IMG/VR virus record: IMGVR_UViG_3300045988_161245
Location: 128,001 to 192,000 of that record
Direction: 5' to 3' (one strand)
DNA from: a virus
DNA: 64,000 nt
The notes beneath the pieces are model-generated. The model saw nothing but the letters and a program-made list of their open reading frames with translations. It searched no databases and was not told the DNA's origin. Made by a program: the position numbers and the translations under genes. This document shows, in pieces, positions 20,636 through 35,087 of the stretch (positions are counted from its first letter, which is position 1; each line of letters opens with the position of its first letter).

Positions 20636-21538
20636 ATGATTATTTTAGGCAAAATTAAAGTTGATGACCAGGTACTTAAGTATTGTGAAATTTCCTATGA
20701 TCCATTTTATGTAACAGTCATGTCTGAGGACGAAAAAGCAATTGTAGATCTCTTTAATAATGCAAAATCTATTATTGTTATGGATCAGTATGGACTGGTA
20801 ATCAAGTCCGTATCCAATTATTGTGGCGTTGAATCTTCTACTATAAAATATAACTTTTATCTGGATGAAGAGAACAACATGAAACCTGTAATTACCGTTC
20901 GTCTCAAGGCTGTTGATCTCAATGAAAAAATCAAATCTATTGAAGCTGCTATGGGTGAAGATACTGTTGACGAATCAAGTATGTCTCTTGAAGAGTACAG
21001 AGCATACAAAATTAAACAGTATGGTGTAGAATGCCAGGACAAAATTTATGCAGGTACTGATGTAGAGACAAGTTATGGAACAGAGCACTTTTCTGCCACA
21101 GGTGATGATCAGGCAAATATTAAAACTTTATCTGATGTTGCCATGGCAACAAAGGTATCTCTTCCATATCATGCAGATGGCTCACAGTGCAAAGTATATA
21201 CCTATCAGGATATTATTAAAATTTACTGTGAGATTCAGAAACTCATTCTTGCAGAGACATCTTATTGTAATGCTTTGAATACATATGTAAGAGGACTTAA
21301 TACCAAAGAACAGATTGCAGCTGTTAAATATGGTCAGGAAATTACAGATCAGGCAATTAAGACTAATATGGATACCGTAATTGCACAGGGAAATGCTGTA
21401 ATGGAAGGTATTGTAAAGCAGTATCTTGAAACTGCAGTACCAGAAACTAAGACAGATGTTAAGGACACAGAAAATACTACAGATGGTACAGATAATATAG
21501 AAGATGCAGCTACAGAAAAATCATCTAAAAAGGCGTGA
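20636..21538 (+). CDS. hypothetical protein, possibly a fibre-associated / DUF4376-like accessory protein
   Basis: AAAGGAG RBS. The central region YKIKQYGVECQDKIYAGTDVETSYGTEHFSATGDDQANIKTL resembles DUF4376-type phage proteins. This is an inference only. Confidence 0.5.
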   Translation: MIILGKIKVDDQVLKYCEISYDPFYVTVMSEDEKAIVDLFNNAKSIIVMDQYGLVIKSVSNYCGVESSTIKYNFYLDEENNMKPVITVRLKAVDLNEKIKSIEAAMGEDTVDESSMSLEEYRAYKIKQYGVECQDKIYAGTDVETSYGTEHFSATGDDQANIKTLSDVAMATKVSLPYHADGSQCKVYTYQDIIKIYCEIQKLILAETSYCNALNTYVRGLNTKEQIAAVKYGQEITDQAIKTNMDTVIAQGNAVMEGIVKQYLETAVPETKTDVKDTENTTDGTDNIEDAATEKSSKKA

Positions 21539-21543
21539 TATAA

Positions 21544-21975
21544 ATGAATAAATTAAAGCCATGGGCTAAATATTTATTTTTGTTTTACATGGGTGGTTCT
21601 ATCTATTACTACATAGAAGTCCTGTTCAGAGGATATAGCTATTTAAGTATGTTTATTCTTGGTGGAATATGTTTCATTTATTGTGGGTTGCAAAATGAAA
21701 AAACTTCATGGGATTATCCGTTTTGGAAGCAATTAGCAAAATCTGAAGCATTTGTACTAATAGCAGAATTTTTGACAGGATGTGTTTTAAACTTATGGCT
21801 CGGTCTTGGAATTTGGGATTATAGTAATCTTCCTGGAAATATTCTCGGACAGACTTCTTGGCAGTTTGCATTACTCTTTTTGCCGGTATGTGCATTTGGA
21901 ATTATCTTGGACGATTATCTAAGGTACTGGTTCTTTAATGAAGATGAACCACATTACAATTTTAAGCTTAAATAA
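21544..21975 (+). CDS. polytopic membrane protein (PF06541-like), holin candidate
   Basis: About four hydrophobic helices. The motif GGSIYYYIEVLFRGYSY resembles the CmpB-type putative membrane protein family. It lies just upstream of the lysis region. Confidence 0.5.
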   Translation: MNKLKPWAKYLFLFYMGGSIYYYIEVLFRGYSYLSMFILGGICFIYCGLQNEKTSWDYPFWKQLAKSEAFVLIAEFLTGCVLNLWLGLGIWDYSNLPGNILGQTSWQFALLFLPVCAFGIILDDYLRYWFFNEDEPHYNFKLK

Positions 21976-21981
21976 TCAATA

Positions 21982-22010
21982 GGGGTGGTATTATACCACC
22001 CTTTATTTTT
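21982..22010. terminator. bidirectional terminator between convergent genes
   Basis: GGGGTGGTA tta TACCACCC, flanked by an A-run upstream and a T-run downstream. Confidence 0.75.
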
Positions 22011-22188
22011 ATTCTTTTTTGTAATCAAGCATGTATGTAATTATTTCACCTATTGACATTTTATCAACTTGATCAGAAGTAATAAGATCATGTCCGGATT
22101 CAATTAACCCACGGATGTAATCGAATGCATGTAAATGTTGTATATATTCTCTCGCCTGAGAAATCGTAGTCATTCTCATATTTTTCAT
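22009..22188 (-). CDS. small hypothetical protein (59 aa, below the ORF-track cutoff)
   Basis: My own translation gives MKNMRMTTISQAREYIQHLHAFDYIRGLIESGHDLITSDQVDKMSIGEIITYMLDYKKE. It fills an otherwise empty gap and is antisense to the late module. Confidence 0.4.
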   Translation of the reverse strand: MKNMRMTTISQAREYIQHLHAFDYIRGLIESGHDLITSDQVDKMSIGEIITYMLDYKKE

Positions 22189-22215
22189 CTCAAATATTAA
22201 AATCTTAACTCCCTC

Positions 22216-22368
22216 TTAATTTTTATGTTTAAGTATAAAATTATTAATATCTGAGATACAGTCTGTATTCACTTCATCTTCTATAAAACTTTCATAATGA
22301 TCAAGTCTTAGGCAAATCAATTTAACATAATTCTTGATTTCAAATTTTTCTTTCATATCAGTTGCCAT
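22216..22368 (-). CDS. small hypothetical protein (50 aa, below the ORF-track cutoff)
   Basis: My own translation gives MATDMKEKFEIKNYVKLICLRLDHYESFIEDEVNTDCISDINNFILKHKN. An AAGGA RBS-like sequence lies upstream. Confidence 0.4.
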   Translation of the reverse strand: MATDMKEKFEIKNYVKLICLRLDHYESFIEDEVNTDCISDINNFILKHKN

Positions 22369-22502
22369 TTTTTTATTACCATCCTTTTCTATTTTTTTTA
22401 AATTATACCAATTTTAATTAAATATTTCACTGGAAATATATGGTAATTGATCACTTCTAAAAGTTAACTCTAAATTCAATTCTAAGAAAGGAGTCACATC
22501 TT

Positions 22503-23522
22503 ATGACAAAGACAGAAAAAGCTACTCAGTGGATGGAAGCAACAGCTCGAAACGATGCACATGGATATGATCAGACTTTTCGTTGGAACGAAAAAGGCGA
22601 TTATGACTGCTCTTCTGCTGTTTACACTGCATGGGTCAATGCAGGTATTCCTGTAAAAGATTATTCATTTAAAACTTATGGCTGTGCTTATACTGGTGTT
22701 ATGAAAGCAGTATTTACACATTTTAAATTTAAGGATGTAACCTCTAAAGTAAATCTTGCAACAGGAGCAGGTTTACAGCGTGGAGATATTTTACTTAATG
22801 AAAAACGTCATGTTGCAATGTATTGTGGTAATGGACTTGAAGTTGAAGCATCTATCAATGAAAATGGTAGAGCTACTGGAGGTAAACCTGGGGACCAGAC
22901 TGGACGTGAATTCTTAATTCGCTCTTATAGAAATTATCCATGGAATGTTGTTCTCAGATATACTGAAGCAGCTGATGGTAATCCGCCTGTAACTACAAAA
23001 AATTATCTTGCTATGGGTGATAAAGGTGATGCAGTAAAAACAATGCAGACAATGCTTATTAAACTTGGTTATTCATGTGGAAAATATGGTGCTGATGGAG
23101 ATTTTGGATCAGGATCATTAGCATCTGTAAAAGCGTTTCAGCGTGATAATGGACTTGTTGCAGACGGTCTTTATGGTGAGGCTACAAAAGCTAAACTTAC
23201 AACCTTATATAATGCTAAAATTAAAGCAGAATCGGCTCCAAAACCAAGTTCAAAGCCATCTATTGCATCATCTTCTAAAGTTGCTTCTGCACAGTCCTTT
23301 AATAAATCAATTGCTGGTACTTACAAGGTTAAAGCATCTAATGGTCTTAATCTTCGTTATAAACCAGGAGATACATCCAATTCAAATCTTATCATTACAA
23401 TCCCTAATGGAAAATCTGTTGCAAATTATGGATACTACACTACCGTCAATGGAGTCAAGTGGTATCTTGTTACATACAAAGATACACCTGGATTTGTTTC
23501 CAGTAGGTATCTTGTTAAATGA
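22503..23522 (+). CDS. modular endolysin: Amidase_5/NlpC-P60-like Cys-His hydrolase + PG_binding_1 + SH3
   Basis: AAAGGAG RBS. The N-terminus ATQWMEATARNDAHGYDQTFRWNEKGDYDCSSAVYTAW...RHVAMYCG parallels the Dp-1 Pal-type catalytic domain. GDKGDAVKTMQTMLIKLGYSCGKYGADGDFGSGSLASVKAFQRDNGLVADGLYG matches PG_binding_1. The C-terminal YKVKASNGLNLRYKPG...VKWYLVTYKDTPGFVSSRYL is SH3-like. Confidence 0.85.
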   Translation: MTKTEKATQWMEATARNDAHGYDQTFRWNEKGDYDCSSAVYTAWVNAGIPVKDYSFKTYGCAYTGVMKAVFTHFKFKDVTSKVNLATGAGLQRGDILLNEKRHVAMYCGNGLEVEASINENGRATGGKPGDQTGREFLIRSYRNYPWNVVLRYTEAADGNPPVTTKNYLAMGDKGDAVKTMQTMLIKLGYSCGKYGADGDFGSGSLASVKAFQRDNGLVADGLYGEATKAKLTTLYNAKIKAESAPKPSSKPSIASSSKVASAQSFNKSIAGTYKVKASNGLNLRYKPGDTSNSNLIITIPNGKSVANYGYYTTVNGVKWYLVTYKDTPGFVSSRYLVK

Positions 23523-23569
23523 TAGTACAGCACACAATGAATAAAGGGAGTGAGGATAAGGTGATTTAA

Positions 23570-24148
23570 ATGGATAAGTTTGGTGGGATTAAAGAGAATG
23601 TAGAAGTTGTACGCAGTTTTGATTGGTGGACCGTTGTAATTGGAGTTTTGATTGCAATAGGTATTGTAATGCTATGCGTAAAAATTAAAGACTTCGTTGT
23701 TTCTACATTTGGAATTACTACAAAATCTGCTTTAGCTAAACAGGCACAAGAGGAACGTATCAAAGACTTGAATAATCAAATTATAGATTTACAGAAAGAA
23801 ATTCAACAGTTTAAGGATAATAGAACCCATGATAGAGAGCAGTCATTTGATATACAGAAACAATTAACTGACAGTCAGACTTTGCTACAAAATTCTGTCG
23901 AGAATTTAAGAAAAATGTTAGTTAACAAAGAGATTAATGACATGCGTTGGGAAATTCTTGACTTTTCAAATGCCGTTATGAACGGTAGAGTATATAATAA
24001 AGAGATATATGATCATATTTTTGACACATACACAGAATATGAACGAGTATTGGAAGAAAACGGTCTTGAAAATGGTAAGGTTGATTCTTCAATGCAATTT
24101 GTTCGTAATAAATATCTTGAGCTAATGGAAAAAGGCTTTAAGCAGTAA
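23570..24148 (+). CDS. membrane-anchored coiled-coil protein (lysis-associated?)
   Basis: A single N-terminal TM (WWTVVIGVLIAIGIVMLCV) followed by coiled coil. Function unknown. Confidence 0.5.
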   Translation: MDKFGGIKENVEVVRSFDWWTVVIGVLIAIGIVMLCVKIKDFVVSTFGITTKSALAKQAQEERIKDLNNQIIDLQKEIQQFKDNRTHDREQSFDIQKQLTDSQTLLQNSVENLRKMLVNKEINDMRWEILDFSNAVMNGRVYNKEIYDHIFDTYTEYERVLEENGLENGKVDSSMQFVRNKYLELMEKGFKQ

Positions 24149-24158
24149 TTATACATAT

Positions 24159-24201
24159 GGGGTAATAAGTTGTTATTATACAGCTTACTACCCCATTTTT
24201 T
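24159..24201. terminator. bidirectional terminator closing the late module
   Basis: GGGGTAATAAG ... CTTACTACCCC stem followed by ATTTTTT. The convergent minus-strand gene stops at 24209. Confidence 0.7.
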
Positions 24202-24208
24202 CGCGTTT

Positions 24209-24427
24209 TTATTTACATGATATATTATATATTGGAACAAATACCTGATCATTGATTTCGAGCCGTTTTGGATAATTATTGATGAGTGCATCATATATTT
24301 GAATTGCCATTTTTTCTGTTATCACAGTATCTTTTTTGATTGGAATTTTCTGGATAAGATTTTTCATAATTATTCTGGCATTTTCATTTTCATATATATA
24401 TTCGTCTGCAGGTATTGGATTAATCAT
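24209..24427 (-). CDS. hypothetical 72-aa protein driven by an SOS-box-like promoter
   Basis: Strong AGGAGG RBS 8 nt upstream of the ATG. No recognisable motif. Confidence 0.6.
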   Translation of the reverse strand: MINPIPADEYIYENENARIIMKNLIQKIPIKKDTVITEKMAIQIYDALINNYPKRLEINDQVFVPIYNISCK

Positions 24428-24453
24428 AATATCGACCTCCTATTGTAAATAAT

Positions 24454-24505
24454 CGAACAATTGTTTGTTAAATGTTATTGTATAGAATATACGTTCGATT
24501 GTCAA
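24454..24505 (-). promoter_or_regulatory. sigma-A promoter with two Cheo-box (Firmicute LexA)-like sites
   Basis: On the minus strand: TTGACA (24505-24500), a 17-nt spacer, TACAAT (24482-24477). The spacer contains CGAACGTATATTCT (24484-24497). Downstream of the -10 lies the palindrome CAAACAATTGTTCG (24454-24467). The consensus is CGAACNNNNGTTCG. Confidence 0.55.
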
Positions 24506-24609
24506 GGCTTTATGTCGAATTGTTGCAATTTATTTACCATGATTTTTCTATACTTCTGCTGCTATGTATGGTATTATCATATTTGTAACTAACATTTCAA
24601 TTTTAATAA

Positions 24610-24648
24610 GACTCCAGCACGATTTAAATTGGCCTGCGTGCTGGAGTC
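24610..24648. other. isolated GC-rich 12-bp perfect hairpin
   Basis: gactccagcacg - 15-nt loop - cgtgctggagtc in an otherwise AT-rich, ORF-free stretch, with only weak U-tracts on either side. Confidence 0.6.
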
Positions 24649-24843
24649 TTGTATATGTAAAATTTACTCATTCCGCAACTTGAATAGTCCTTATAATAAT
24701 CAGAACTTAAAAGTACAAATTCCATACTTTTCTCCTAATAAAGTAAAAACCTCTGATATTTGCAAAGAAGAAGATTTTTTCAAACCTAATATTGCAAAAA
24801 TGCGTGATTATCTATATAATAAATATAGAAATCCAAAAACTTC

Positions 24844-24872
24844 TTGACAAACAAGATAAAAAGTTATATACT
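24844..24872 (+). promoter_or_regulatory. orphan sigma-A-type promoter
   Basis: TTGACA (24844-24849), a 17-nt spacer, TATACT (24867-24872). No credible CDS lies downstream. Confidence 0.5.
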
Positions 24873-24878
24873 ACAATA

Positions 24879-24996
24879 TATAAAAAATTAGAGAAAACTA
24901 AATAAAGTGCTTTTTGGATATAGGAGCAAATGAGCCAGCCTATATTTGGAAAGAACACTTTCAAAAAGGACACCTCGTAGGATGTCCTTTTTGTAT
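24879..24996 (+). ncRNA. candidate small RNA (about 115 nt) bounded by a promoter and a terminator
   Basis: The predicted TSS is about 7 nt after the -10. It ends at the hairpin AAAGGACAcctcgtaggaTGTCCTTT plus TTGTATTGTTTTT (24965-25002). The only ORF is 16 aa, with an RBS just 3 nt from the ATG. Confidence 0.3.
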
Positions 24997-25020
24997 TGTT
25001 TTTATATTAAACTATATAAC

Positions 25021-25055
25021 AAAGCCCAGCGATCCACACGGACAACTGGGCTTTT
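25021..25055. terminator. hairpin terminator (usable on both strands)
   Basis: AAAGCCCAG - 16-nt loop - CTGGGCTTT followed by TATTG. It lies 3' of the minus-strand 85-aa gene. Confidence 0.6.
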
Positions 25056-25098
25056 ATTGTTACTATTCCTCATCATATTCCAGACTCATATTTTCCTC

Positions 25099-25356
25099 TT
25101 ATTCTTTTATAAATGTTGTCATAATAGATGCTGTATACCCTGATTCATCACCGTTACATTCCTGAATAATATATGTACCAAGCTTATATTTGTCTGAGAG
25201 AGCTTGTATTGCTTCATTTACTGTTTTAAATGCTCCAAGAATTTTCTTATTTTTCAGTGCTATAAAGGATTTTCCATATTTATTATATAGATCCTGGTAT
25301 ATACTTACAAAATATTTGAAATCATTTAATCTGTCTTGTTCTGTATATGTGTCCAT
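25099..25356 (-). CDS. hypothetical 85-aa protein (possible transposon cargo)
   Basis: GGAGGG RBS. The sequence KYGKSFIALKNKKILGAFKTVNEAIQALSDKYKLGTYIIQEC loosely resembles DUF5678-type small proteins. Confidence 0.55.
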   Translation of the reverse strand: MDTYTEQDRLNDFKYFVSIYQDLYNKYGKSFIALKNKKILGAFKTVNEAIQALSDKYKLGTYIIQECNGDESGYTASIMTTFIKE

Positions 25357-25440
25357 ATTGTCAACCCTCCAATCTGTTCTTTTCTACTAATATATTACTA
25401 TATTTTGCTGTATATTTCTATGTACAATGTGGTCTAATGA

Positions 25441-25474
25441 CCATAATAAAAGCCCAGGCATTCACCCAGGCTTT
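25441..25474 (-). terminator. rho-independent terminator after the 90-aa gene
   Basis: Minus strand: AAAGCCTGGG tgaatg CCTGGGCTTT (two G-U pairs), then TTATTATGG. Confidence 0.6.
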
Positions 25475-25485
25475 ATAGTGTGTTA

Positions 25486-25758
25486 TTATTCTACCGTTGG
25501 CTTCGGCATTGACATAAGCTCCTTCAGTTCTTCAATTGTGTAACCGTTGGAATCCATGAGATCCGCAAGAGCTGTAAGCTGCGCTGCACGTTCGGCTTTA
25601 GATTTCTGGGCTTTTAAAATAGTAAGTTCTTTATCAATAGTCTTTTTCTGTTCTGATAATGCATTAATCTTCTCAGTTAATTTTTTAATTTCTTCATCAA
25701 TTTTTGTAAGTTTTGAATTAAGCACTTCTTCTTTTGTTCGTCTTGTTCTTGCTGCCAT
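25486..25758 (-). CDS. small coiled-coil protein (DUF4315-like), immediately downstream of tniQ
   Basis: I prefer the ATG at 25758 (MAARTRRTKEEV...), which has a TAGGAGG RBS. The coiled coil is followed by LADLMDSNGYTIEELKELM, an architecture seen in small proteins of Firmicute mobile elements. Confidence 0.6.
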   Translation of the reverse strand: MAARTRRTKEEVLNSKLTKIDEEIKKLTEKINALSEQKKTIDKELTILKAQKSKAERAAQLTALADLMDSNGYTIEELKELMSMPKPTVE

Positions 25759-25834
25759 AATAAAATTCCTCCTATTGGATAATTTTATAATTATACTACT
25801 CCATAACAACTAAAGTTTCAAGATAATTTTGAAA

Positions 25835-26647
25835 TTAATGGCATATTTTTAAATAATAATATATGGCACTCATTGTATAAAAATTTTTTCTATTGTCATA
25901 TACCATTGAGTCTATTTCTCTACCGCAAAAATTTATTCCATGTTTTTTATAAAAACTAATTATGTTACTTCTTAATCCCCAATTTTCTTTTCTAATCGAC
26001 AAATAATCAATACCAATATCTTTTATGTCTTGTTTATAATATCTGTCAATTGCGTATTCAACTATTTTATCAAGCATTTCATTTGTGTTATATTCTACAT
26101 CAGAGTTAAGATTCATCATTTCTAGTGGAGATAATTTTTCTCTTACTCTTCCATAACCAATATAACGTATTTCACTATTATGCAATTTGCACTTGTGTAT
26201 AGGACATATCGGTAACATTCGTATTTGATGTATATTATGCCAATATGCTTCTCCATATTTTTTACGATCCTCAATAATACACATTGGACAATATTTCAAT
26301 TGTCTATTTTCGCTACGTGGTCTTCTTATATTAAGCTCTGTTTTATAGCAGTCCGTTTTTAAATTATAAAGGAATTCATTAGTATAGTCATTTGAACAAT
26401 ATCCTGTATAAACATAAAACATTGTATGATGTTTTAACAGATTTTCTATTGATATAACTTTCTCAATATTATTTTCGGTATCTTTATTAATATTTCCAAT
26501 AAATAATTTACTAATAACATTTGTACTGTTTACAAATAGTTCTTTTGCAATCTCATGCTCTCTCCATATACCGCTATTTACAAGATATCTACAGAACCAG
26601 CTGTAAACTGTTTCGTCATCATAGATGCTAGGAAGTCTGTTTGTCAT
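25835..26647 (-). CDS. tniQ: TniQ-family transposition target-selection protein (short, 270 aa)
   Basis: The N-terminus LPSIYDDETVYSWFCRY and the zinc motif CPMCIIEDRKKYGEAYWHNIHQIRMLPICPIHKCKL are typical of TniQ/TnsD N-terminal domains. There is an ATGA start/stop overlap with tnsC. Confidence 0.75.
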   Translation of the reverse strand: MTNRLPSIYDDETVYSWFCRYLVNSGIWREHEIAKELFVNSTNVISKLFIGNINKDTENNIEKVISIENLLKHHTMFYVYTGYCSNDYTNEFLYNLKTDCYKTELNIRRPRSENRQLKYCPMCIIEDRKKYGEAYWHNIHQIRMLPICPIHKCKLHNSEIRYIGYGRVREKLSPLEMMNLNSDVEYNTNEMLDKIVEYAIDRYYKQDIKDIGIDYLSIRKENWGLRSNIISFYKKHGINFCGREIDSMVYDNRKNFYTMSAIYYYLKICH

Positions 26648-27879
26648 ATTTTTATTTCCTCCACTATAATTGATTGTTTAAGCAGTTTTATAAAATCAAT
26701 ATTTTTTTCCTTAGATATTTTCAATATCGCTTCAATGTTATTAAACTCTTTTATTACGCAATCTTGTGTGATATTATTTGTTCTATTAGATACTATGTGT
26801 TTATTTTTCTTTTTATCGACTTTGTTAATGCTTGGTTGTATAAATTTGTGATACATTTCAATCCTATTTTGGTATGCTTCATTCAATATATTAATATTAA
26901 TCTTGCTAACTCCTGACATTATAGCAATTTCCTGAGCATCGTGTAATAATGATATTACAATTGAAATGTTACCGCAGGAATGGTCATATATCCATTTATA
27001 AAACTCTTCATTTATTGTTGCATTTTTTATAGTATATCGATATCTAAATAATATATTGCATATGTTTTTAAAGTACTCATCATAAGAAAGTGCTGTATAT
27101 TTAAGCCCCATAGTTCTTCTTGCAAGATGTTCGGCACCCTCGAAAAACAATACACTTTCCGGAGTACCAACCATACAAATACTTATTCCGCTATTGTTGA
27201 TAAGCTGTGTAAGAAATCCTATTATATTTTTACCGTTTTTTGAGTTTGCAACATTTTGTATCTCATCAATGATAAGAACACCTATATTATTTATTGCTAT
27301 TGTACTTATTTGGCTTATGAGGGCATCTGTAGTACATTTATCAATAATTTTCCCATTTAAATATTGTGTTTTAAGCATACTGTTTATCTTCATCAAAATT
27401 TCGATCGCAAGACCTTTTACAGATGAATCAAATGGACATTGTACAGTTACAAATGGAATTATATCTGAGAATAAATTGCAATCAAATTTACAATTTTCAA
27501 CAATAACATCTACTGCCCTGTTAACGGCTGTACTTTTACCAATACCTGAACTCCCTATTATTGTAAATGAATCAGATCCGCCAATTATACTATTAGAGTT
27601 TCCTGTTAAAAATCTTTTGTAATTTTCGTATCTTTGCTGTGATGCCAATTTTGAACTCTTCTTTTTTAGTGAGTGATATAAAGACAAATATAATTTGTTA
27701 TAAATCTCTATGGACATTTTAGATGGAATATAAATATCATATAGATTTGATAAAGCAATCAGTTTCTCTCCAATGTCCATATTTTTACTATTTTCATCAT
27801 ATTTTGGAACAACAGACAATGCTTTTACAAGTCCATCTCCTGATAACATTTTTGGTAATATTTTTGTATAATCATCCAT
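26644..27879 (-). CDS. tnsC: TnsC/TniB-like AAA+ transposition ATPase
   Basis: Walker A IIGSSGIGKSTAV, Walker B VLIIDEIQNV. It sits between tnsB and tniQ with overlapping stops and starts. Confidence 0.8.
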   Translation of the reverse strand: MDDYTKILPKMLSGDGLVKALSVVPKYDENSKNMDIGEKLIALSNLYDIYIPSKMSIEIYNKLYLSLYHSLKKKSSKLASQQRYENYKRFLTGNSNSIIGGSDSFTIIGSSGIGKSTAVNRAVDVIVENCKFDCNLFSDIIPFVTVQCPFDSSVKGLAIEILMKINSMLKTQYLNGKIIDKCTTDALISQISTIAINNIGVLIIDEIQNVANSKNGKNIIGFLTQLINNSGISICMVGTPESVLFFEGAEHLARRTMGLKYTALSYDEYFKNICNILFRYRYTIKNATINEEFYKWIYDHSCGNISIVISLLHDAQEIAIMSGVSKININILNEAYQNRIEMYHKFIQPSINKVDKKKNKHIVSNRTNNITQDCVIKEFNNIEAILKISKEKNIDFIKLLKQSIIVEEIKI

Positions 27880-29695
27880 TTAAGATATCCTCCGTGAAAT
27901 CAATATGATATTTTCTTTTAGCTCTATTTTTAACAGATGTAGTATATTTTGTATTTAATTTTTGAGGATATTGTACATTAGCTACTATCTCTTCCAAAGA
28001 ATTTGCCAAGTCAATTTGCGCCTGAGTGTTGCTATTACAATGACTATTTACGAGTTTTCGATGCTCTTTTTCGATCAATTCTACATCAGTTAACTCTTTT
28101 CCATTATACCTACTTTCAATCAATTTAAACTGTATATAACACCCATTTTCTATAAGCCATACATAGCTTACATTATCTGGATTATAAGCAACTGTTACTT
28201 CTCCACCAACCAAATATTTTTCAATATAATTCTCATTTTTGTACCTCATTTTATTTACTTTAAGCCCAAATCTACTAAATACACCGATGGTTCTTGGAAG
28301 TAATGTGAGCATAATTTGTTTTAATGTTACCGGTATTAAGTTAGCTCCTGGAAGTAATTTGTTATATTCAAAAATTCTATTCGCATATGGCTCAATATTG
28401 TTTTTTATCATATCTTCTGTATAAGGAAAATTCTTTAATATACGCTGCGAATTATAATATACAATGCACTTTACTATGATTTTTTCAAAAACTTCCATTG
28501 TCAAACAAGCATCTTTTCTATAATCATGTACGCCTCTTTCAAGAAAATCAGGTTCAACTATACCTTTATTTTTTAAATAAGGTTTGTATGTTTCTTGAAT
28601 TATATTAAAAAATTTTTCTACAACGCCTTTTAATTCAGGACGATATGGTGGCAAATTTTTTAGTGCAACTCCAAGCTCAGTTATTTGTTCGAAATTTTCA
28701 GATACATATTCTTTTCCCATGTCAGTAACAAATGTCCCTGGGATTTCAGATATGTTCCACTGATCATCGTTTATGAATATACCGAGTTCTTCACAATGTT
28801 TCTTTTTATTAGATACCATATTTTGCATGAGCACTTTTAAACTATAAATGCCACCTTCCCAAGTTAATGCATAGCCGTAACAAAAACTGCTATATGCGTC
28901 AATACAAACTGTTAATATAGGTCTTCCAACTAAGCTGTTTGTCTCATCTATGAGATATATGTCACACACCGTAGAGTCAAGTAATCCGGTACCAACTGCC
29001 GGTGCAAATTCCTGTACTCCATCGCCTAACAATGGTCTTTTATTTCTTTGGTAATTACTTAAACCACCTCTTGAAATGTAAAAAGCTTGCATATTTTTTG
29101 TCTTACGATAAAAGTATCTGAACTGATAAAAAGATGGTATATTAGGTTGTAACCTTCCATCTATATCGCAATATTTTTCTTTTAACATAAGCAAATAAGA
29201 AGACTTTAAACTATATCTGTTTGTGCTATAAAAATATTTATTTAAAGCCCATCTCATATTCTTTTCATCTTTAGTAAGTGACTTTTCTGTAATACTACTT
29301 TTTGGTACAAGTACACAAATATTTTGGAAAATAAGATACTTGTAAAAGTAGTTTCTAAGAGACTGTTTACTTATATTTCTTTCTTCACATATTTGATTTA
29401 CCAATGAGGTACGCTTGTGTTTATCATCCATAAAGGAAAGTAATGGAGCAATCATATTGTACCGATCGTATGCTATCTTTTTATTATGCTCTGAAGCTTC
29501 TGATATGTCGAATACAGGCTCCTTTGTCTCTTGTATAAGTAAATCCTCATCACACAAAATAGCGTCCTTAAAATCAATTTTATGCGCTGTATACGGCATT
29601 TTGGGATTTAAACAATCAATGATAAAAACTGATTGATCTGATTCTTTTAAAACTCTTGCTATTGTACCATTAAACTTATACAATTCATTCTTCAT
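27872..29695 (-). CDS. tnsB: TnsB-like DDE (rve/Mu-type) transposase
   Basis: The DDE core is DSTVCDIYLIDE ... FVTDMGKEYVSENF ... YRPELKGVVEKFF. I prefer the ATG at 29695 (MKNELYKF), which has GGGGGA upstream and an ATGAAGAATGA overlap with the tnsA stop. Confidence 0.85.
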   Translation of the reverse strand: MKNELYKFNGTIARVLKESDQSVFIIDCLNPKMPYTAHKIDFKDAILCDEDLLIQETKEPVFDISEASEHNKKIAYDRYNMIAPLLSFMDDKHKRTSLVNQICEERNISKQSLRNYFYKYLIFQNICVLVPKSSITEKSLTKDEKNMRWALNKYFYSTNRYSLKSSYLLMLKEKYCDIDGRLQPNIPSFYQFRYFYRKTKNMQAFYISRGGLSNYQRNKRPLLGDGVQEFAPAVGTGLLDSTVCDIYLIDETNSLVGRPILTVCIDAYSSFCYGYALTWEGGIYSLKVLMQNMVSNKKKHCEELGIFINDDQWNISEIPGTFVTDMGKEYVSENFEQITELGVALKNLPPYRPELKGVVEKFFNIIQETYKPYLKNKGIVEPDFLERGVHDYRKDACLTMEVFEKIIVKCIVYYNSQRILKNFPYTEDMIKNNIEPYANRIFEYNKLLPGANLIPVTLKQIMLTLLPRTIGVFSRFGLKVNKMRYKNENYIEKYLVGGEVTVAYNPDNVSYVWLIENGCYIQFKLIESRYNGKELTDVELIEKEHRKLVNSHCNSNTQAQIDLANSLEEIVANVQYPQKLNTKYTTSVKNRAKRKYHIDFTEDILNG

Positions 29696-30044
29696 TAATA
29701 ACAATCCCCCAATCTGATATACCATGCGTTTTCCAGTACTCTCTGGATGCGTCTAGTAATCTAATAGTCATCGGTTTTTGTAATAGTTTTCTTTCTATAC
29801 ATTCACGGACCATTAGGTCACCTGTATCTTTTACGCATACAAAGTCTGATGTGTAAGTTCTTTCTGGATACTTACTATCCTTATATCCATCAAGATCTAC
29901 ATTTACTCGTATACTGATTATGCTTTGATCTTTTTCTAGTTTCATTGCATAAGCATATTGAATCTTGCTGTAGGTTATGCATACGCCATCACATTTGCAT
30001 AAATATAATTTTGTTGCAGCTACTTTTGAATTTTTATTCCGCAT
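29685..30044 (-). CDS. tnsA: TnsA-like PD-(D/E)xK endonuclease (nuclease core only, 119 aa)
   Basis: TSDFVCVKDTGDLMVRECIERK fits the D...ExK restriction-endonuclease-like motif of the TnsA N-terminal domain. It is the first gene next to the repeat-rich end. AGGAGG RBS. Confidence 0.6.
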   Translation of the reverse strand: MRNKNSKVAATKLYLCKCDGVCITYSKIQYAYAMKLEKDQSIISIRVNVDLDGYKDSKYPERTYTSDFVCVKDTGDLMVRECIERKLLQKPMTIRLLDASREYWKTHGISDWGIVINEE

Positions 30045-30071
30045 TATTTTACCTCCTATTTTTGAAATGAT

Positions 30072-30241
30072 TTTTCCTAAAAACGGCTATTTTCTTGCTA
30101 AAAACGATTGATTTTTTCCTAAAAACGCATTTTTAGGGTTATTTTCGTTTTTAGCATTTCATTTTTAGGAAAAACAAAATACTCGCAAGCCCAGTAAAAT
30201 CAATGGTTTGCGGATTTTCCTAAAAACGTTTCCTAAAAACG
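30072..30241. repeat. array of 8 putative TnsB-binding sites, motif (C/G)CTAAAAACG
   Basis: Direct copies: 30076-30085, 30097-30106, 30118-30127, 30219-30228, 30232-30241. Inverted copies: 30128-30137, 30146-30155, 30160-30169. Copies 3 and 4 together form the palindrome CCTAAAAACGCATTTTTAGG. Confidence 0.7.
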
Positions 30242-30256
30242 AGGTTAAAAATACTA

Positions 30257-30663
30257 TGTTGAGAGGCAATTACTTTTAGTCTTTTTTGGGGCAAAAATTT
30301 TATTCTTTTATTCCGGTCAAAATTTGCTTTGAATTTGCTCTGACGCAAGATTTTCCTCTTTTGTGCATGTTAATTTGACTACAATAAAATCACAATTTTA
30401 TCGGAAAAATGACCCCCTTTAATCCCTTATTTTTATTGACTTTTCGAAAGCCGATTTTTGGAAAAATCGCGATTTTTAGCTATTTTGGGCTGTTTTTTGA
30501 ACTTTTCGTCAAATTGCACAAAAAAATGACCTTGGATAAAAATATCAAAGGTCATTTTCTATGTTCTTATTCTTATAAGTTTCTTGTAAGCAAACTATTT
30601 TATTTGATGTCTCAGGCTAAAAAAATTGCCCCATTTTACGCTAAAGTTTATTGCCCTCGAACA
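30257..30663. mobile_element. 407-bp non-coding mini-element with TGT...ACA termini and about 50-bp imperfect terminal inverted repeats
   Basis: The left end is TGTTGAGAGGCAATTACTTTTAGTCTTTTTTGGGGCAAAAATTTT. The right end, reverse-complemented, is TGTTCGAGGGCAATAAACTTTAGCGTAAAATGGGGCAATTTTTT. Internal inverted copies of GTCAAATTGCACAAAA lie at 30360-30380 and 30508-30523. An internal hairpin lies at 30527-30562. There are degenerate TTTTTAG(C/G) / GCTAAAAA motifs in end-appropriate orientation. Confidence 0.55.
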
Positions 30664-30771
30664 TAGTATTTCTGACCTTGAAGTCATTATACGAGATTTA
30701 TATATTTCTTGCAATAGTTCGAGTTCCAATTTCGCAATATTTTACTTATTTTGCTTAATATATTACGGATA

Positions 30772-30906
30772 TTAATCAATATCATCATCATCATCTTTAT
30801 TTCTTCCGGCAGTAAGACAAGCTGTAAGAATAAGTCCAACTACTCCACCAACCACAAATGTGCAGCCTACAATACAAATAAATGTACCAATACCAAGTGT
30901 AATCAT
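30772..30906 (-). CDS. 44-aa small membrane protein with an acidic tail (below the ORF-track cutoff)
   Basis: My own translation gives MITLGIGTFICIVGCTFVVGGVVGLILTACLTAGRNKDDDDDID. Its ATG overlaps the DHFR-fusion stop (ATGA), suggesting translational coupling. Confidence 0.5.
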   Translation of the reverse strand: MITLGIGTFICIVGCTFVVGGVVGLILTACLTAGRNKDDDDDID

Positions 30907-31871
30907 GCAGTCTCATCCTCCATTCTGTGAATTTCTGAATCAAGTAATGCTAATGATATTTTTAAATTGACCTCAACATTATCCGCACACCATGTTGAGA
31001 TACATCTGATAATTTCACCACGGTTATAATTAAGTTCCTGATCTTCAATAAAATCATTAACATCAATCTTAAATTTTTGATCTTCAACATCCACTGTATT
31101 ATCTTCTGTAAGTCTTCTTTCAAGGTACCACTTAGCTTTATTTAGGTCTTGTAATTCTTTCTGTGAATCTCCAGGATATTTTTTTCCTGCCCTACAGATA
31201 TATTTAGCAACATTTCCAAGGCAGTAACCAAGCCCCCTATCTTCAATGAAACTAATTACTTCATATTTTTTTCCTATATAATGTGATGGATTTTTAACTG
31301 CATCGTGACCAAAAACAGGATCAGAATAGGCATTGGATACAGTCTTACAATTCTCTTTTCTGATAAATGTTTTAAAGCTATATGATAAATTACCGTATGT
31401 CTTATCTATAGATTCAATCTCATCAAAATTGTTTAAAAGGTATTCGATTGGGAAAAATACATCCGCAGTTGAGATACATCTATTAACGATTGTTGCATAA
31501 ACTTTCTCGCAATGAGGTAAGAACATTTTGTAGATACTTTCTCCACCAATTGCAAAATACTTAGTCGGCATTTCAACTATAAATTTTATTTCTTCTTTTG
31601 TCATTTTTTTTAATATATTAACATCTGTAGCATATCCATTATCTTCATTGATTGGCTCTGCTGCATAATTAAGTGTCGTAGAAAGGACAATATTGTTCCT
31701 ACTTTTAAGAGGCTTGTTACCAATACTGTTCCATGTCTTTCTTCCCATGATAACAGAATGTCCCATTGTAATCTCTTTAAATCTTTTTAAGTCATCTGGA
31801 ATCTTATAAAGTAAGTCACCATTCTTACCGATTCCACCAAAATTATCCATACAAACGATTGCTGATAACAT
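30903..31871 (-). CDS. dihydrofolate reductase fused to a DUF3310 (SaV-like) domain
   Basis: The N-terminal about 165 aa are MLSAIVCMDNFGGIGKNGDLLYKIPDDLKRFKEITMGHSVIMGRKTWNSIG...NIVLS (DHFR). The C-terminal NPSHYIGKKYEVISFIEDRGLGYCLGNVAKYICRAGKKYPGDSQKELQDLNKAKWYLERRL matches the phage DUF3310 pattern. Confidence 0.75.
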   Translation of the reverse strand: MLSAIVCMDNFGGIGKNGDLLYKIPDDLKRFKEITMGHSVIMGRKTWNSIGNKPLKSRNNIVLSTTLNYAAEPINEDNGYATDVNILKKMTKEEIKFIVEMPTKYFAIGGESIYKMFLPHCEKVYATIVNRCISTADVFFPIEYLLNNFDEIESIDKTYGNLSYSFKTFIRKENCKTVSNAYSDPVFGHDAVKNPSHYIGKKYEVISFIEDRGLGYCLGNVAKYICRAGKKYPGDSQKELQDLNKAKWYLERRLTEDNTVDVEDQKFKIDVNDFIEDQELNYNRGEIIRCISTWCADNVEVNLKISLALLDSEIHRMEDETA

Positions 31872-31884
31872 AAATTTTCTCTCC

Positions 31885-32787
31885 TTAAATACCCAACGGT
31901 AGCGTCAATTGTGGCTTCATTGGCTTGTAATTTTCCATAGAAAAGTCGTCAATTGTCATGTCATAAAAGTTATTTTTTTCTGGATTTAATACCAATTTTG
32001 GCATCAAATTTTTATCAATTTCATCATTTTTTAATGCTTCAAAAGTGGCTAAATGTCTCTCATTTGCACGATGAATTAGCTCTTTTGCTTGGTCAATCTG
32101 GCGCGTATAAATTTGTTCATTCACTACGAAATGAGTAAATTTTCCAGGCTTATATCCGGTGTGTTTTGCGACCATCATAAGTAATGCAGCGTACTGTACT
32201 TCATTTGTTGATCCTGGACCACTTGCAGGTAATAAATCACCAGATCTTTGGTTTAAAAACATATCTAAATACTCTTCACGTACTGTCCAAATAGTCTCAT
32301 ATGCACATGGTTTTAATCCGTTTGGTTCATCTTTAAATTCTTCTTCCTGCCACAAATTGCAGATATGATAACGTCCATATGGATTGTTCTTGATATCATC
32401 TAAAACACGCTTTTTAAACAAGTCATAACGGTGTACTGTATGACCATATCTATATCCATTTGTACCGTCTCCAATATCCCATAAATCCCAAAAATGTACG
32501 CCCATTTCGTTCAGAATTTTGAGGTCATTTGACTCTTTCTGGAAGATCCAAAACATCTCTTTAATTGCACTTTTCCATGCAATTGGACGTAAAGTACAAA
32601 TTGGAAAATCACCTTTTGAGAGGTCATATTGACGCATTTGATGTGTCACAAAATAGGTGTGAGCAGGTGTTCCGTCCTCGTATTTTGGTCTAGGATTTTC
32701 ATCTTTAATACCATTTTGAAGGATATTATAGATAGATTCTACGAGATATTTATCGGCTTTTGTCATTAATCCGTATTCGTATTCCAT
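31885..32787 (-). CDS. thyA: thymidylate synthase (B. subtilis ThyA / phage type)
   Basis: DGTPAHTYFVTHQMR, the catalytic LKPCAYETIWTV (compare TPCVYETQWYV in B. subtilis ThyA), QRSGD...NEVQYAALL, and YTRQIDQ. Confidence 0.85.
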   Translation of the reverse strand: MEYEYGLMTKADKYLVESIYNILQNGIKDENPRPKYEDGTPAHTYFVTHQMRQYDLSKGDFPICTLRPIAWKSAIKEMFWIFQKESNDLKILNEMGVHFWDLWDIGDGTNGYRYGHTVHRYDLFKKRVLDDIKNNPYGRYHICNLWQEEEFKDEPNGLKPCAYETIWTVREEYLDMFLNQRSGDLLPASGPGSTNEVQYAALLMMVAKHTGYKPGKFTHFVVNEQIYTRQIDQAKELIHRANERHLATFEALKNDEIDKNLMPKLVLNPEKNNFYDMTIDDFSMENYKPMKPQLTLPLGI

Positions 32788-32790
32788 GTA

Positions 32791-33033
32791 TTATTCCTCA
32801 ACTTTCCACTTAAAAATATCTTCTTCAAATTTAGAAATTACATCTTTATTATTAGTGTGGATTACAATAAAAATTTCTTTTGGAATTCCAAGAGACAATA
32901 ATCCCATAATAGATTTTGCATCAATAACATATCTGCCACATACTGCGTCAATATCATAATTGTATTTATCAATAGATTTCACGAGACTATTAGCATCATT
33001 CAGTGTATTCAGTTTGATTCTCATTATTTTCAT
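32791..33033 (-). CDS. HPr-fold-like small protein lacking the phospho-His motif
   Basis: VIDAKSIMGLLSLGIPKEIFIVIHTNN resembles the HPr core (naKSImgvmsLgv). The LHARPA His15 region is replaced by LNDANS. Confidence 0.35.
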   Translation of the reverse strand: MKIMRIKLNTLNDANSLVKSIDKYNYDIDAVCGRYVIDAKSIMGLLSLGIPKEIFIVIHTNNKDVISKFEEDIFKWKVEE

Positions 33034-33235
33034 CTTCTTTCACTTCTTTATTTACTATATCTTCATCTTCTAAAAACAATTTATATCCATATTTATCATT
33101 ACAAATGTTATATAATTTTGCATTTGCATCTTCGGAAGCAGGTACACCCTTTTTGTGAGTGTACCTTTTGCAAGTGTTCTGTTTTGGACATGTTTTAGAA
33201 TTTTCATCTAATGCGCAATAATAAAATGTGTCCAT
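32996..33235 (-). CDS. hypothetical Cys-containing acidic protein
   Basis: Compact operon position. No motif recognised. Confidence 0.45.
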   Translation of the reverse strand: MDTFYYCALDENSKTCPKQNTCKRYTHKKGVPASEDANAKLYNICNDKYGYKLFLEDEDIVNKEVKEDENNENQTEYTE

Positions 33236-33238
33236 TCA

Positions 33239-33775
33239 TTACTCCTTTTTGTTGTCAGTTGATCCGAAACCACCGTTACGTGTTGCTTCTACATGATCGT
33301 CTTCTGTAATTCCATATTCTAAGAAAATTCCCTGGGCGATAGCTGCATTGCTTGTTACTGAAAACTCTTTATCTCCACGATTTACAAGTTTAATAAAAAT
33401 GTGACCTTCGTTGTCAGAGTTAATAAAATCGCAGTCTATAATTCCTGTTCCATTTACTAGATTGCACTGATATTTAAATCCAAGTCCACTTCTTGGGTAA
33501 ATCATAAGAACATAATCTGTATTCATACGACATTTAATACCTGTTGGAATTTTAATTACTTCTCCTGGCTTTAGTGTAAATGAAAATGGAGTTCTAATAT
33601 CAAATCCTGCGCTAAACTTTGTAGCTCTTGTAGGTAACTCTAATCCATAATACATACTTTCAATTTCTTGTCTGAGTCTCTTAGATGTATCATCACCTGC
33701 AAGTCCAAATGTATCTAAATAATCTTTTTCAAACTGCTTATAGCTTACTTTCTCAAATTTTGCTACCCTCTTCAT
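33239..33775 (-). CDS. dut: trimeric dUTP diphosphatase
   Basis: The motifs SAGFDI, YPRSGLGFK, GTGIIDCDF and RNGGFGSTD are present. Confidence 0.85.
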   Translation of the reverse strand: MKRVAKFEKVSYKQFEKDYLDTFGLAGDDTSKRLRQEIESMYYGLELPTRATKFSAGFDIRTPFSFTLKPGEVIKIPTGIKCRMNTDYVLMIYPRSGLGFKYQCNLVNGTGIIDCDFINSDNEGHIFIKLVNRGDKEFSVTSNAAIAQGIFLEYGITEDDHVEATRNGGFGSTDNKKE

Positions 33776-34401
33776 TAATCTTCATCCTCCTCGTCCCATG
33801 GATCATATTCATCGCAACATTCACAATCACCGTTGCAATGCAATTCTTTATTTGGATTAACTCTAAACATATATTTAAGAATTCTGTCTTCACCAATAGT
33901 TTCAATTGCATCGTAAGCTATATCTCCATTAGAGAACAGTACAGTACCTACCGGTGGAAGAAATGAATCGTTCTCAACAGTAATTGACATGTCGTCTTCA
34001 TCAAGTACAAGCCAGAATGCGTACGATGGATGGGCGATTTCTCCATTGTGTTCATCTGCATAATTCTGAAGTTCTGTCATTATTTTTCTACGCTCCATCT
34101 CAAATTCAGCTTCTTCTTTTGTCTTGTAAATATTTCTAGCGTTATAATATTTGTTATCAAAAACATCGTTTTCCCATTTGAGAGAAGTTATATTATCAAA
34201 AGGATCAATATGAAAATAATCTTCACCAAAATTTGGTTTCCAACGTTTATTCGCATCTTTCTTTTTATTCTCTTCTTTATTTGTATCTGCAACTTTCTGT
34301 AAATCCTCTTTTACTCTTGAAAGTGTTTGTGTAATAGCTTTAATAACCTCTGGACTACATCCAGATACATCAACGTTATATCCAATACAATTTGTATCCA
34401 T
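33775..34401 (-). CDS. hypothetical protein with a Cys-rich acidic C-terminus
   Basis: Ends in CNGDCECCDEYDPWDEEDED. The start overlaps the upstream stop. Confidence 0.5.
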   Translation of the reverse strand: MDTNCIGYNVDVSGCSPEVIKAITQTLSRVKEDLQKVADTNKEENKKKDANKRWKPNFGEDYFHIDPFDNITSLKWENDVFDNKYYNARNIYKTKEEAEFEMERRKIMTELQNYADEHNGEIAHPSYAFWLVLDEDDMSITVENDSFLPPVGTVLFSNGDIAYDAIETIGEDRILKYMFRVNPNKELHCNGDCECCDEYDPWDEEDED

Positions 34402-34404
34402 ATT

Positions 34405-35082
34405 TTATTTCTCCTTCTCTTTGTATAAGTCTTTAATTTTTTCTTCTAAATATTTCAAATATTCATCCCACATATTTTTTGTGTAGATATATTCTTTAGT
34501 CTGACGTGCCATCATTAACTTTTTCATATCAGTTTTATAATCAAATGGCTTATTTCTACGACCTAGCTTTTTTGCAAGAACATCAGATAAAAATGACTGT
34601 GTAAATCTTGAGAAAGTCAATAAGTCCTCTTTCTGGATATCAGCGATTATTTTCTTATATTCATCCATTTTATCCGTTGGTATTGAAACATCTGCTTTGG
34701 GGAAATTTTTTAGACTATAAGGTGTGATATCTGCACCAAATGATGATGCTTTTAATAGATTTGCAACTGCGTCCATATCTGCAGTCTTGAATTTAAATTC
34801 TACTTCGCTATCATAGATATGTGGATCTGAATATGGAATATTTGTTTCATCAAGTTTCTTTAAAATATTTTTCCCACGAATAATGCTTGGGATGTAAGCT
34901 ACAAAAGTACCTCGACCATAATAATAAATTTTATTACCGAATTGACATTTAATATATAAGTCATCGTAACTTTTATCAACGGTCCCATCTTCTTCTCTTG
35001 GTACATCGTGACTTTCTAGTGAGAGTTCCGGTACAATTCTGTACTTACCTTTAAAATGCTGTGTTAAATAACTCATAGGCAT
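34405..35082 (-). CDS. hypothetical protein
   Basis: Coding-like composition, tightly packed in the operon. Confidence 0.5.
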   Translation of the reverse strand: MPMSYLTQHFKGKYRIVPELSLESHDVPREEDGTVDKSYDDLYIKCQFGNKIYYYGRGTFVAYIPSIIRGKNILKKLDETNIPYSDPHIYDSEVEFKFKTADMDAVANLLKASSFGADITPYSLKNFPKADVSIPTDKMDEYKKIIADIQKEDLLTFSRFTQSFLSDVLAKKLGRRNKPFDYKTDMKKLMMARQTKEYIYTKNMWDEYLKYLEEKIKDLYKEKEK

Positions 35083-35087
35083 TCACC

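Follow-up and report, generated by a model that had tools for sequence, protein, structure and literature searches.

Why should a bacteriophage carry a complete set of Tn7-like transposition genes when no transposon can be recognized around them? The question is raised by positions 128,001-192,000 of the viral record IMGVR_UViG_3300045988_161245, a stretch of 64 kb (hereafter the window) from a phage genome of about 216 kb. In the window, four minus-strand open reading frames (ORFs), tniQ, tnsC, tnsB and tnsA, follow one another with overlapping stops and starts, and a segment of 407 bp with inverted arms, which we call the mini-transposon, lies beside them. Very likely, tnsABCQ and the mini-transposon serve phage lysogeny in place of an integrase, by a Tn7-like, site-specific insertion of the whole genome that duplicates the mini-transposon. 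This reading is carried by the structure of the integrated product, a 5-bp target duplication, the constancy of site and orientation, the replacement of an integrase in its genomic slot and the conservation of all four proteins. What the window shows is a temperate jumbo phage that infects Blautia-like Clostridia of the human gut, in its free state and not integrated. All data come from metagenomic or genome assemblies, and L-numbers denote individual related loci or contigs.

The original prediction, made from the window alone, had considered the left end of the element to be divergent, lost or far away. Both ends are in fact adjacent to each other at 30257-30663, just beyond the interval that it had covered, where 30242-30302 and 30618-30678 form a 61-nt inverted repeat. 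The tns genes lie beside this unit and outside both ends, which enclose 145-407 bp without genes in the free phage and in all relatives inspected; the genes become enclosed only after integration, between two copies of the mini-transposon. A left end had not been found earlier because the genes sit beside the mini-transposon and not within it, and nothing that resembles an end comes after tniQ, be it in the window or in a more distant phage group described below. The P arm, on the tnsA side, pairs with the Q arm and has a block that 14 family members share, ACAT being invariant at the P (inner) tip. The order of the parts is the same in all members of the family that were inspected, those from phages and those from bacteria. 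In many contigs the assembly stops within the mini-transposon, 53-55 or 76-79 nt from one tip or the other. These distances are typical assembler k values, and contigs breaking there indicate that under de Bruijn assembly the mini-transposon behaves as a repeat with differing flanks. A scan of viral contigs with 15-mers of the Q arm gave mostly chance matches and zero new contexts.

The flanks of the mini-transposon differ between a free and an integrated form. In about 18 contigs it lies, as in the window, between the gene for dihydrofolate reductase (DHFR) and tnsA, which is the free form. At the araC-side junction (L159, L221 and L223, the last a contig of 218,327 bp) host DNA is joined to the Q tip, and the P tip is followed by the repeats upstream of tnsA (class B, see below), tnsABCQ and the late genes; the host genes there encode an AraC-family regulator and then microcompartment proteins. 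At the galK-side junction (L032, L226, L227, L228, L230 and L231, up to 222,533 bp) the early genes and DHFR precede the Q tip and the P tip is joined to host DNA with galK and genes for a Y-family polymerase, GntR, an ABC transporter and SASP. The mini-transposon is complete at both types of junction. At empty sites, of which at least 12 uninfected contexts were found, galK and araC are divergent neighbors, and the two kinds of junction therefore represent the left and right borders of a single locus. The integrated order is galK, mini-transposon, DHFR, about 216 kb of phage DNA, tniQ-tnsC-tnsB-tnsA, mini-transposon and araC, with both copies of the mini-transposon in the same orientation.

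In one host lineage the empty site (L222) reads ACATGT-AAAAT-AGAATT, with AAAAT present once, whereas the araC-side junction (L223) reads ...ACATGTAAAAT followed by TGT and the galK-side junction (L226 and L231) reads ACA followed by AAAATAGAATT, an exact 5-bp target-site duplication of AAAAT. Two further events are offset by 1 and 2 nt and thus represent independent insertions. The duplicated bases vary between host lineages (ATTGT in one, ATTTT in another), but when three host lineages are aligned the Q tip falls at one and the same column, with a conserved host block, ATTACCTTAAATAACTTGCG...GTAATATATTGCG, about 20 nt away. All nine junctions lie at a single intergenic galK-araC site and have one orientation, so that the choice of target, which had been left unexplained, is accounted for by site-specific insertion into this intergenic region of the host.

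These junctions bear on the idea that the module is a cargo-poor Tn7-like transposon hitch-hiking on the phage, with the Q tip as its right end (bearing an odd internal inverted arm) and its left end lost or diverged, and now immobilised or decaying. Its gene order and its position near one end resemble the right end of Tn7, its TniQ is shorter than those of bacterial relatives, and degraded variants exist, such as L167 with a truncated tnsB (a candidate fragment). A hitch-hiker is nevertheless very improbable, as the P and Q tips are each joined to the host at one site, with a 5-bp duplication and with the rest of the phage attached; moreover, the module occupies the same slot in three phage lineages with flanking genes equally diverged, its proteins look constrained and the short TniQ belongs to a stable subfamily.

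TnsB and TnsC are homologues of MuA and MuB, and phrog_310 and phrog_296, to which the two proteins are related, are phage transposition-protein families. It could therefore be imagined that the phage follows the full logic of Mu and replicates its genome by repeated transposition, with TnsB and TnsC in the roles of MuA and MuB. This is extremely improbable, since the window encodes a replisome of its own (DNA polymerase, DnaB-type helicase, ligase, RecJ, exonuclease and ribonucleotide reductase), nine out of nine insertions are at a single host site, and the tips lie together inside the free-form genome and not at its ends on random host DNA. A reading in which the entire phage genome is a canonical transposon, its ends on the class-B side and at the P tip abutting in a circle, was likewise rejected, as there is no CA-3' terminus at 30254-30256, the tnsA-side sequence is joined to the P arm in 14 of 14 contigs and a complete mini-transposon is present at the araC side.

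The genomic slot of the module also connects it with lysogeny. In the sister phages L036, L029 and L028 a tyrosine integrase of 397 aa (PF00589, 63.5 bits) is encoded between DHFR and a coiled-coil gene, and beyond its integrase L029 runs into bacterial host genes. In the window a cassette of approximately 25800-30770 stands in place of this integrase. Its left boundary is based on the homology between L036 and the window, which resumes at 25798, directly past the tniQ stop; the coiled-coil gene is consequently a phage gene and not cargo, and there is no space for a left end. A promoter-like sequence past tniQ has TTGAAA and TATAAT 20 nt apart, or 17 nt to TAGTAT. The module had been thought to be inserted at a handy convergence point of early and late genes. 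Alignment with relatives lacking it defined the slot of an integrase instead, while the expected 5-bp duplication came from the host junctions. Together with the junctions and the duplication, this replacement supports the third of the options originally considered, namely that the machinery is the one that the phage itself uses for integration.

TnsB relatives were found on 24 viral contigs, and seven close relatives are colinear with the window across the module. A distant phage group, with TnsB about 54% identical and a TniQ of 430-540 aa, has the module between early and converging late/lysis genes, and its flanking phage proteins have diverged approximately as much as the module. A third phage lineage has a TniQ of 274 aa and an identical layout.

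The assignment of the four proteins rests on domain families for three of them and on structure for the fourth. TniQ matches PF06527 with 62 bits (cutoff 27). TnsC matches TniB PF05621 (48.8 bits, cutoff 22.4), AAA_22 (48 bits) and phrog_296, a DNA transposition protein, and its translation contains the Walker A motif GSSGIGKST and the Walker B motif LIIDEIQ. TnsB matches Mu-transpos_C (26.1 bits, cutoff 21.7), rve weakly and the transposase family phrog_310 (3e-31), and HTH_TnsB PF27135 is precomputed on close TnsB homologues; its residues D250, D335 and E370, with a D-E spacing of 35 residues, are invariant over relatives of 49-94% identity. For TnsA the Pfam sequence profile gave 19 bits, under the cutoff of 26.5, a profile search against the sequences of solved structures found no TnsA, and no Pfam domain is recorded on its homologues among the 120 listed of 818. 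An AlphaFold model from an alignment of 37 homologues reached a pLDDT of 93.8, as opposed to only 35 for a single-sequence model, and its top Foldseek matches were the Tn7 TnsA structures 1T0F/1F1Z (probability 1.00, query TM-score 0.81), the next match having E = 0.03. As modelled, the protein has the fold of Tn7 TnsA, with the N-terminal nuclease domain only and without the C-terminal domain. D67 and E81 are invariant in the 37 homologues. Two residues after E81, at the canonical Lys position, there is Ile in the window and Val in all six fully aligned relatives, and Q29 lies in the first helix, where the equivalent of Tn7 E63 might be expected.

Much of what the original prediction had said about the genes was thus borne out: a TnsA/B/C/TniQ core in a phage, a TnsA cut down to its nuclease core, a short TniQ without the C-terminal region of TnsD (270 aa against 430-540 aa in relatives), a viral carrier, as seen from tail, replication and lysis genes in the window and its relatives, and the absence of a CRISPR-like array within the 64 kb. 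In close relatives TniQ is intact and 92-99% identical, and TnsB is 91-97% identical as protein where the DNA is about 92-96% identical; by such comparisons the four Tns proteins look to be under constraint. A short TniQ (263-274 aa) persists down to 50% identity and, judging by this persistence, is a stable subfamily. No resolvase or recombinase domain was found in the ORFs of 24209-30044, and the cassette consists of the four tns genes alone. L167 (a contig of 17,126 bp from Logan SRR27390174) has tnsA, then an ORF of 192 aa in the position of tnsB and then unrelated genes; it looks like a degraded copy of the module, with the ORF as a candidate tnsB fragment. The TnsA variants P0047 and P0049 were also looked up and gave no junctions.

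According to these data, integration can be pictured as follows. TniQ, as the putative reader, and TnsC would mark the galK-araC target, and TnsB would nick and transfer both 3' ends of the single mini-transposon in the circular phage genome. The 5' strands being uncut, replication across the mini-transposon would then give a cointegrate, which would be the prophage, and recombination between the two 407-bp copies could later free the phage circle. The mini-transposon would thus be the functional counterpart of attP, and TnsABC-TniQ that of Int. Replicative cointegrate formation is the most likely route to two copies of the mini-transposon, because one donor molecule suffices and one step would give exactly this product, and because TnsA lacks the C-terminal domain and has Ile or Val at the canonical Lys. 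Cointegrates are also formed with a catalytically dead Tn7 TnsA (D114A) and by the TnsA-less type V-K CRISPR-associated transposons (CASTs).

The same product could arise by cut-and-paste from concatemers or dimers, if TnsA and TnsB cut the Q tip of one mini-transposon and the P tip of the next, so that phage DNA between two copies moves as a composite transposon. The outer tips of the two copies are indeed in the correct TGT...ACA orientation, TnsA has a confident fold with invariant D67 and E81, the replication machinery of the phage makes concatemers plausible, and excision would leave no solo mini-transposon as a scar, which matches the clean empty sites. However, this route requires that ends 216 kb apart come together in synapsis and that the genome has replicated by the time lysogeny is decided, and TnsA has Ile or Val at the canonical Lys and lacks its C-terminal domain. 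We regard the route as less likely, although it is the rival to be taken most seriously. Sequence data alone cannot separate it from the replicative route.

A route in two steps, in which the mini-transposon alone hops into the galK-araC site and the phage then integrates by homologous recombination between mini-transposons, is improbable. It would give the same final structure and duplication, the mini-transposon has everything that a non-autonomous mini-Tn7 needs, and tandem copies occur in L094. Yet excision of the mini-transposon would break the donor phage genome, a solo copy is present at none of at least 12 unoccupied sites, and two rare events would be required.

Some points weigh against integration by replicative transposition as proposed here, or against parts of it. 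The invariance of D67 and E81 suggests that TnsA may be an active nuclease, which would favor cut-and-paste over the replicative route, and the cassette has no resolvase. A solo mini-transposon, the scar expected from excision by recombination, was seen at 0 of at least 12 empty sites, although such sites may never have been lysogenised. The prophage structure is pieced together from separate contigs of the same host locus and lineage, each junction being seen on contigs of its own, and all the evidence consists of assemblies. The check for integration systems spans 64 of about 216 kb, and a second such system may lie elsewhere in the genome. A contig of 122.8 kb bounded by k-mers of the mini-transposon does not fit a size of about 216 kb, and in a bacterial element described below the flanks match over 4 bp (TGGT) and not over 5 bp. 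Finally, the model gives no part to the class-B repeats and the 15-nt inverted flanks of the mini-transposon.

The contig in question, IMGVR_UViG_2936984999_000001 (L003, L025, L062 and L185; 122,814 bp), ends 55 and 54 nt inside the mini-transposon from the P and Q tips, respectively, is colinear with the window near both ends and falls about 94 kb short of the other genomes, which measure about 216 kb. Possibly it represents a prophage that has suffered a deletion and has a mini-transposon on either side, and its 10-digit IMG identifier suggests a genome bin and not a metagenome. The features of the module are collected in Table 1.

Table 1. Coordinates of the integration module and its associated elements in the 64-kb window.
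Feature	Position	Strand	Description or basis
tniQ, short form, 270 aa	25835..26647	-	TniQ N-terminal domain, zinc-finger cysteines; without TnsD-like C-terminal region
tnsC, TniB-type AAA+ ATPase, 411 aa	26644..27879	-	Pfam, PHROGs, Walker motifs
tnsB, DDE transposase, 617 aa	27872..29725	-	Pfam, PHROGs, conserved residues
tnsA, minimal, 119 aa	29685..30044	-	N-terminal PD-(D/E)xK nuclease domain only
Class-B repeat array (TTCCTAAAAACG; relatives TTTTTGGG)	30071..30241	both orientations	Between tnsA and the mini-transposon
Donor flank, tnsA side (AGGTTAAAAATACTA)	30242..30256		Always attached to the P tip, in free and integrated forms
Mini-transposon, 407 bp	30257..30663		TGT (30257-30259) ... 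ACA (30661-30663), inverted arms
P arm, 5'-TGTTGAGAGGCAATTACTTTTAG...	30257..30311	+	Two direct repeats of the type GGCAA-N-TTTTAG, putative TnsB sites
Intrinsic terminator hairpin in the loop of the mini-transposon	30527..30554	-	RNA folding
Q arm, 5'-TGTTCGAGGGCAATAAACTTTAGCGTAAAATGGGGCAA...	30610..30663	-	Two repeats, putative TnsB sites
Donor flank, DHFR side (TAGTATTTCTGACCT)	30664..30678		Always attached to the Q tip, in free and galK-side forms

The region upstream of tnsA is studded with repeats and had been taken for a transposon end. Of the copies of the class-B motif, those at 30074, 30095, 30116, 30217 and 30230 are plus-strand and those at 30146 and 30160 minus-strand; TRF gave a period of 21 bp for the array. 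Within the 64 kb the motif is limited to 30074-30241, so that a scan of the window for inverted clusters found no second one; a renewed search left of tniQ also returned no inverted copies, in agreement with the earlier observation. In about 90 related loci, clusters of the motif occur only upstream of tnsA, and CCTAAAAACG never forms a second inverted cluster, the ends starting at 30257, a single base past the interval first covered. The class-B repeats were therefore ruled out as TnsB end sites, a second cluster being absent within 10 kb downstream in the approximately 90 loci. The array is probably an operator or another regulatory array of the tns operon.

The two 15-nt flanks of the mini-transposon (30242-30256 and 30664-30678) consist of donor DNA beyond the TGT/ACA tips, yet they form an inverted repeat at 13 of 15 positions. 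Of the two, bacterial relatives conserve just the one on the tnsA side, as T(G/A)GT(G/A)nTnTT. Inside the loop of the mini-transposon, the minus strand of 30510-30570 folds with -19.9 kcal/mol (z -6.3) into a hairpin followed by U7, and similar loop hairpins are present in L111, L077, L094 and L010. This terminator is predicted to end the early transcript coming from the DHFR side ahead of the tns operon. A simple terminator scan missed the hairpin, though folding supports it.

The TnsB family includes more than 150 relatives in genomes of Clostridia and Negativicutes, and the mini-transposon stands beside tnsABCQ in about two dozen bacterial loci inspected. Relatives with a long TniQ adjoin guaA or ppdK at its 3' end: the outer tip is 7 nt past the guaA stop codon in Sporomusa, and in L088 (a metagenome-assembled genome of Lachnospiraceae) and L077 (the unclassified isolate 1XD42-1) it follows pyruvate phosphate dikinase. 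On one Lachnospiraceae contig, the mini-transposon on the tnsA side (L088) and another 26.7 kb downstream (the first in L094) show 2 differences, while that of a neighboring element differs at about 12 positions, and by this comparison a 26.7-kb bacterial element is bracketed by two sister mini-transposons. It is quite possible, if slightly less likely than not, that there is a hitherto unrecognized class of Tn7-like elements which have a gene-less mini-transposon beside tnsABCQ and mobilise any circular carrier through TniQ-directed, site-specific cointegration, and that this class spans at least three jumbo-phage lineages and much of the TnsB family of more than 150 members.

Four of the bacterial loci, L111 (Sporomusa ovata CP146301), L088, L077 and L134, are located directly downstream of guaA or the pyruvate phosphate dikinase gene. 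The cargo of L077 and L134 likely includes a type I restriction-modification methyltransferase, HsdM, the sequence having been judged by eye, and that of L111 includes a TetR regulator and a molybdopterin oxidoreductase. A far left end was also sought in bacterial relatives and rejected, as the third copies of the tip motif in L077 and L134 are chance occurrences inside the hsdM gene.

With Tn7 the phage system shares the heteromeric TnsA/TnsB/TnsC machinery with a selector of the TniQ family, the 5'-TGT...ACA-3' tips, repeated sites in each arm and the 5-bp target duplication. Tn7 with TnsD inserts at a fixed distance from a conserved sequence and in a single orientation, and as in Tn7 at attTn7 the tnsA-proximal mini-transposon is next to a conserved host block, at a fixed distance and in one orientation. 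Unlike in Tn7, however, the tns genes of the phage are outside the ends, which are 407 bp apart, and integration duplicates the end unit and brings in a genome of about 216 kb; TnsA, which consists of the nuclease domain alone, has 119 aa, and TniQ has 270 aa. Insertion takes place in an intergenic promoter region and not at the 3' end of a gene, such as the guaA and ppdK ends used by relatives with a long TniQ. The phage system thus has most of the features that define Tn7-like elements and lacks one, since its genes are not between the ends.

Tn5053/Tn402 (TniABQ and TniR), type V-K CASTs and Tn7 with TnsA D114A all form cointegrates with the element at both junctions, and the phage product likewise has a copy at both. 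In these systems the genes are inside the ends, whereas those of the phage are outside. Such elements resolve the cointegrate (through TniR/res) or leave it as a by-product; here it is apparently a functional prophage, and the cassette ORFs, unlike Tn5053/Tn402, include no TniR recombinase domain. The presence of TnsA sets the phage module with Tn7 proper and apart from Tn5053 and type V-K. As in a composite transposon or cointegrate, the cargo is between two direct copies of a smaller unit, which here were seen on separate contigs for each junction.

Compared with phages, the system resembles Mu in lysogenic integration by a DDE transposase with an AAA+ partner and in the 5-bp duplication. 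In Mu the ends coincide with the termini of the genome, insertion is near-random and replication proceeds by transposition, while the ends described here are internal and adjacent (in the approximately 18 free-form contigs), insertion is specific, and the phage possesses TnsA, TniQ and a replisome of its own. It takes the same genomic slot and role as a lambda-type Int/attP system, a tyrosine integrase being there in L036 and L029, but the chemistry is unrelated, there is no core shared by phage and host, and a 5-bp duplication and a 407-bp segment are found at both junctions. The closest parallel in way of life is offered by the IScream phages, prophages of gut Clostridia, including Blautia phages, that are bounded by IS30 and lack an integrase (Wirbel et al., bioRxiv 10.1101/2025.05.09.652943). 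Both are temperate gut phages that integrate by a co-opted DDE transposase and whose prophages are bounded by transposon copies. In IScream phages the IS30 transposase, a single protein, suffices, and each end of the prophage has IS30 genes, which are absent here, whereas the present phage has a four-protein machine of Tn7 type, a mini-transposon without genes, TniQ as selector and a single fixed site in the host. The paper on IScream phages mentions neither Tn7 nor TnsB (Wirbel et al., bioRxiv 10.1101/2025.05.09.652943).

No phage-borne Tn7-like system was found in the searchable literature. Benler et al. (2021, PMC8649781) reported no homologues of Tn7-like transposases in any virus, and a survey of target selectors mentions phage only regarding Mu (Faure et al. 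2023, PMC10293859). Against this background, what is apparently the lysogeny module of a widespread human-gut jumbo phage is Tn7-like, and integration of a temperate phage appears possible without a site-specific recombinase. Together with the IScream phages, this suggests that integrase-less prophages are systematically under-recognised. The layout with ends beside the genes and the duplication of the end cassette also call for a different way of delimiting this Tn7-like family in bacterial genomes. Moreover, a four-protein system with a 270-aa selector that places a replicon of about 216 kb at one site is of interest for large-payload genome engineering, and the class proposed above, if real, would be a natural transposase-based substitute for Int/attP that inserts more than 200 kb at a defined site.

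As for the phage itself, the window contains genes for tail fibres, DNA polymerase, helicase, ligase, RecJ and ribonucleotide reductase and five tRNAs, and endolysin and tail-fibre domains are present in its relatives. The TniQ cluster holds 396 sequences, and the exact dUTPase protein occurs in 578 collection blocks. A search of GenBank phages with the window DNA gave zero matches, and one with the TnsB protein gave only distant TniA genes in Acinetobacter records. An Rfam scan of 24100-31000 had no match. A further contig, IMGVR_UViG_3300029750_000189 (L031 and L057; 38.6 kb), joins sequences like 30763-37209, 38394-38664 and 51622-53787 of the window, and ends with 21135-25356. Missing from it are the tns module and the greater part of the early genes, and it may have arisen by extensive deletion, be a satellite-like element or result from misassembly.

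The small genes near the module had been proposed as its cargo. This does not hold for the 90-aa coiled-coil gene, which is conserved in the integrase-type phage L036, while the 85-aa and 72-aa genes are in a variable island (24209-25480) between the coiled-coil and lysis genes. The window and L229 carry these two ORFs there, and elsewhere the island contains Abi_2 (L225 and L233), an NYN nuclease (L159 and L160) or an aspartic protease (L232). The island resembles a hotspot of morons or defence genes adjoining the integration module.

Several observations concern genes at a distance from the module. A tRNA cluster on the minus strand (56743-60154) comprises Leu-TAG, two Met-CAT and two Gln-TTG, and a 33-bp tandem repeat (3007-3108; 3.1 copies, in frame) lies inside a tail-fibre/minor-tail gene of 1390 aa. 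At 35755-40160 the gene for the large subunit of ribonucleotide reductase is seemingly split into ORFs of 151 and 486 aa with an ORF of 264 aa between them, whose counterpart in relatives carries LAGLIDADG_3. In L226 the DNA ligase (815 aa, compared with 436 aa) is interrupted by an intein that has a LAGLIDADG domain. An exact lookup of the DHFR protein of the window returned no record. This protein of 322 aa (30903-31871), a dihydrofolate reductase fused to DUF3310, is encoded by the final early gene before the mini-transposon and is unusually variable, with 65-99% identity among otherwise close relatives.

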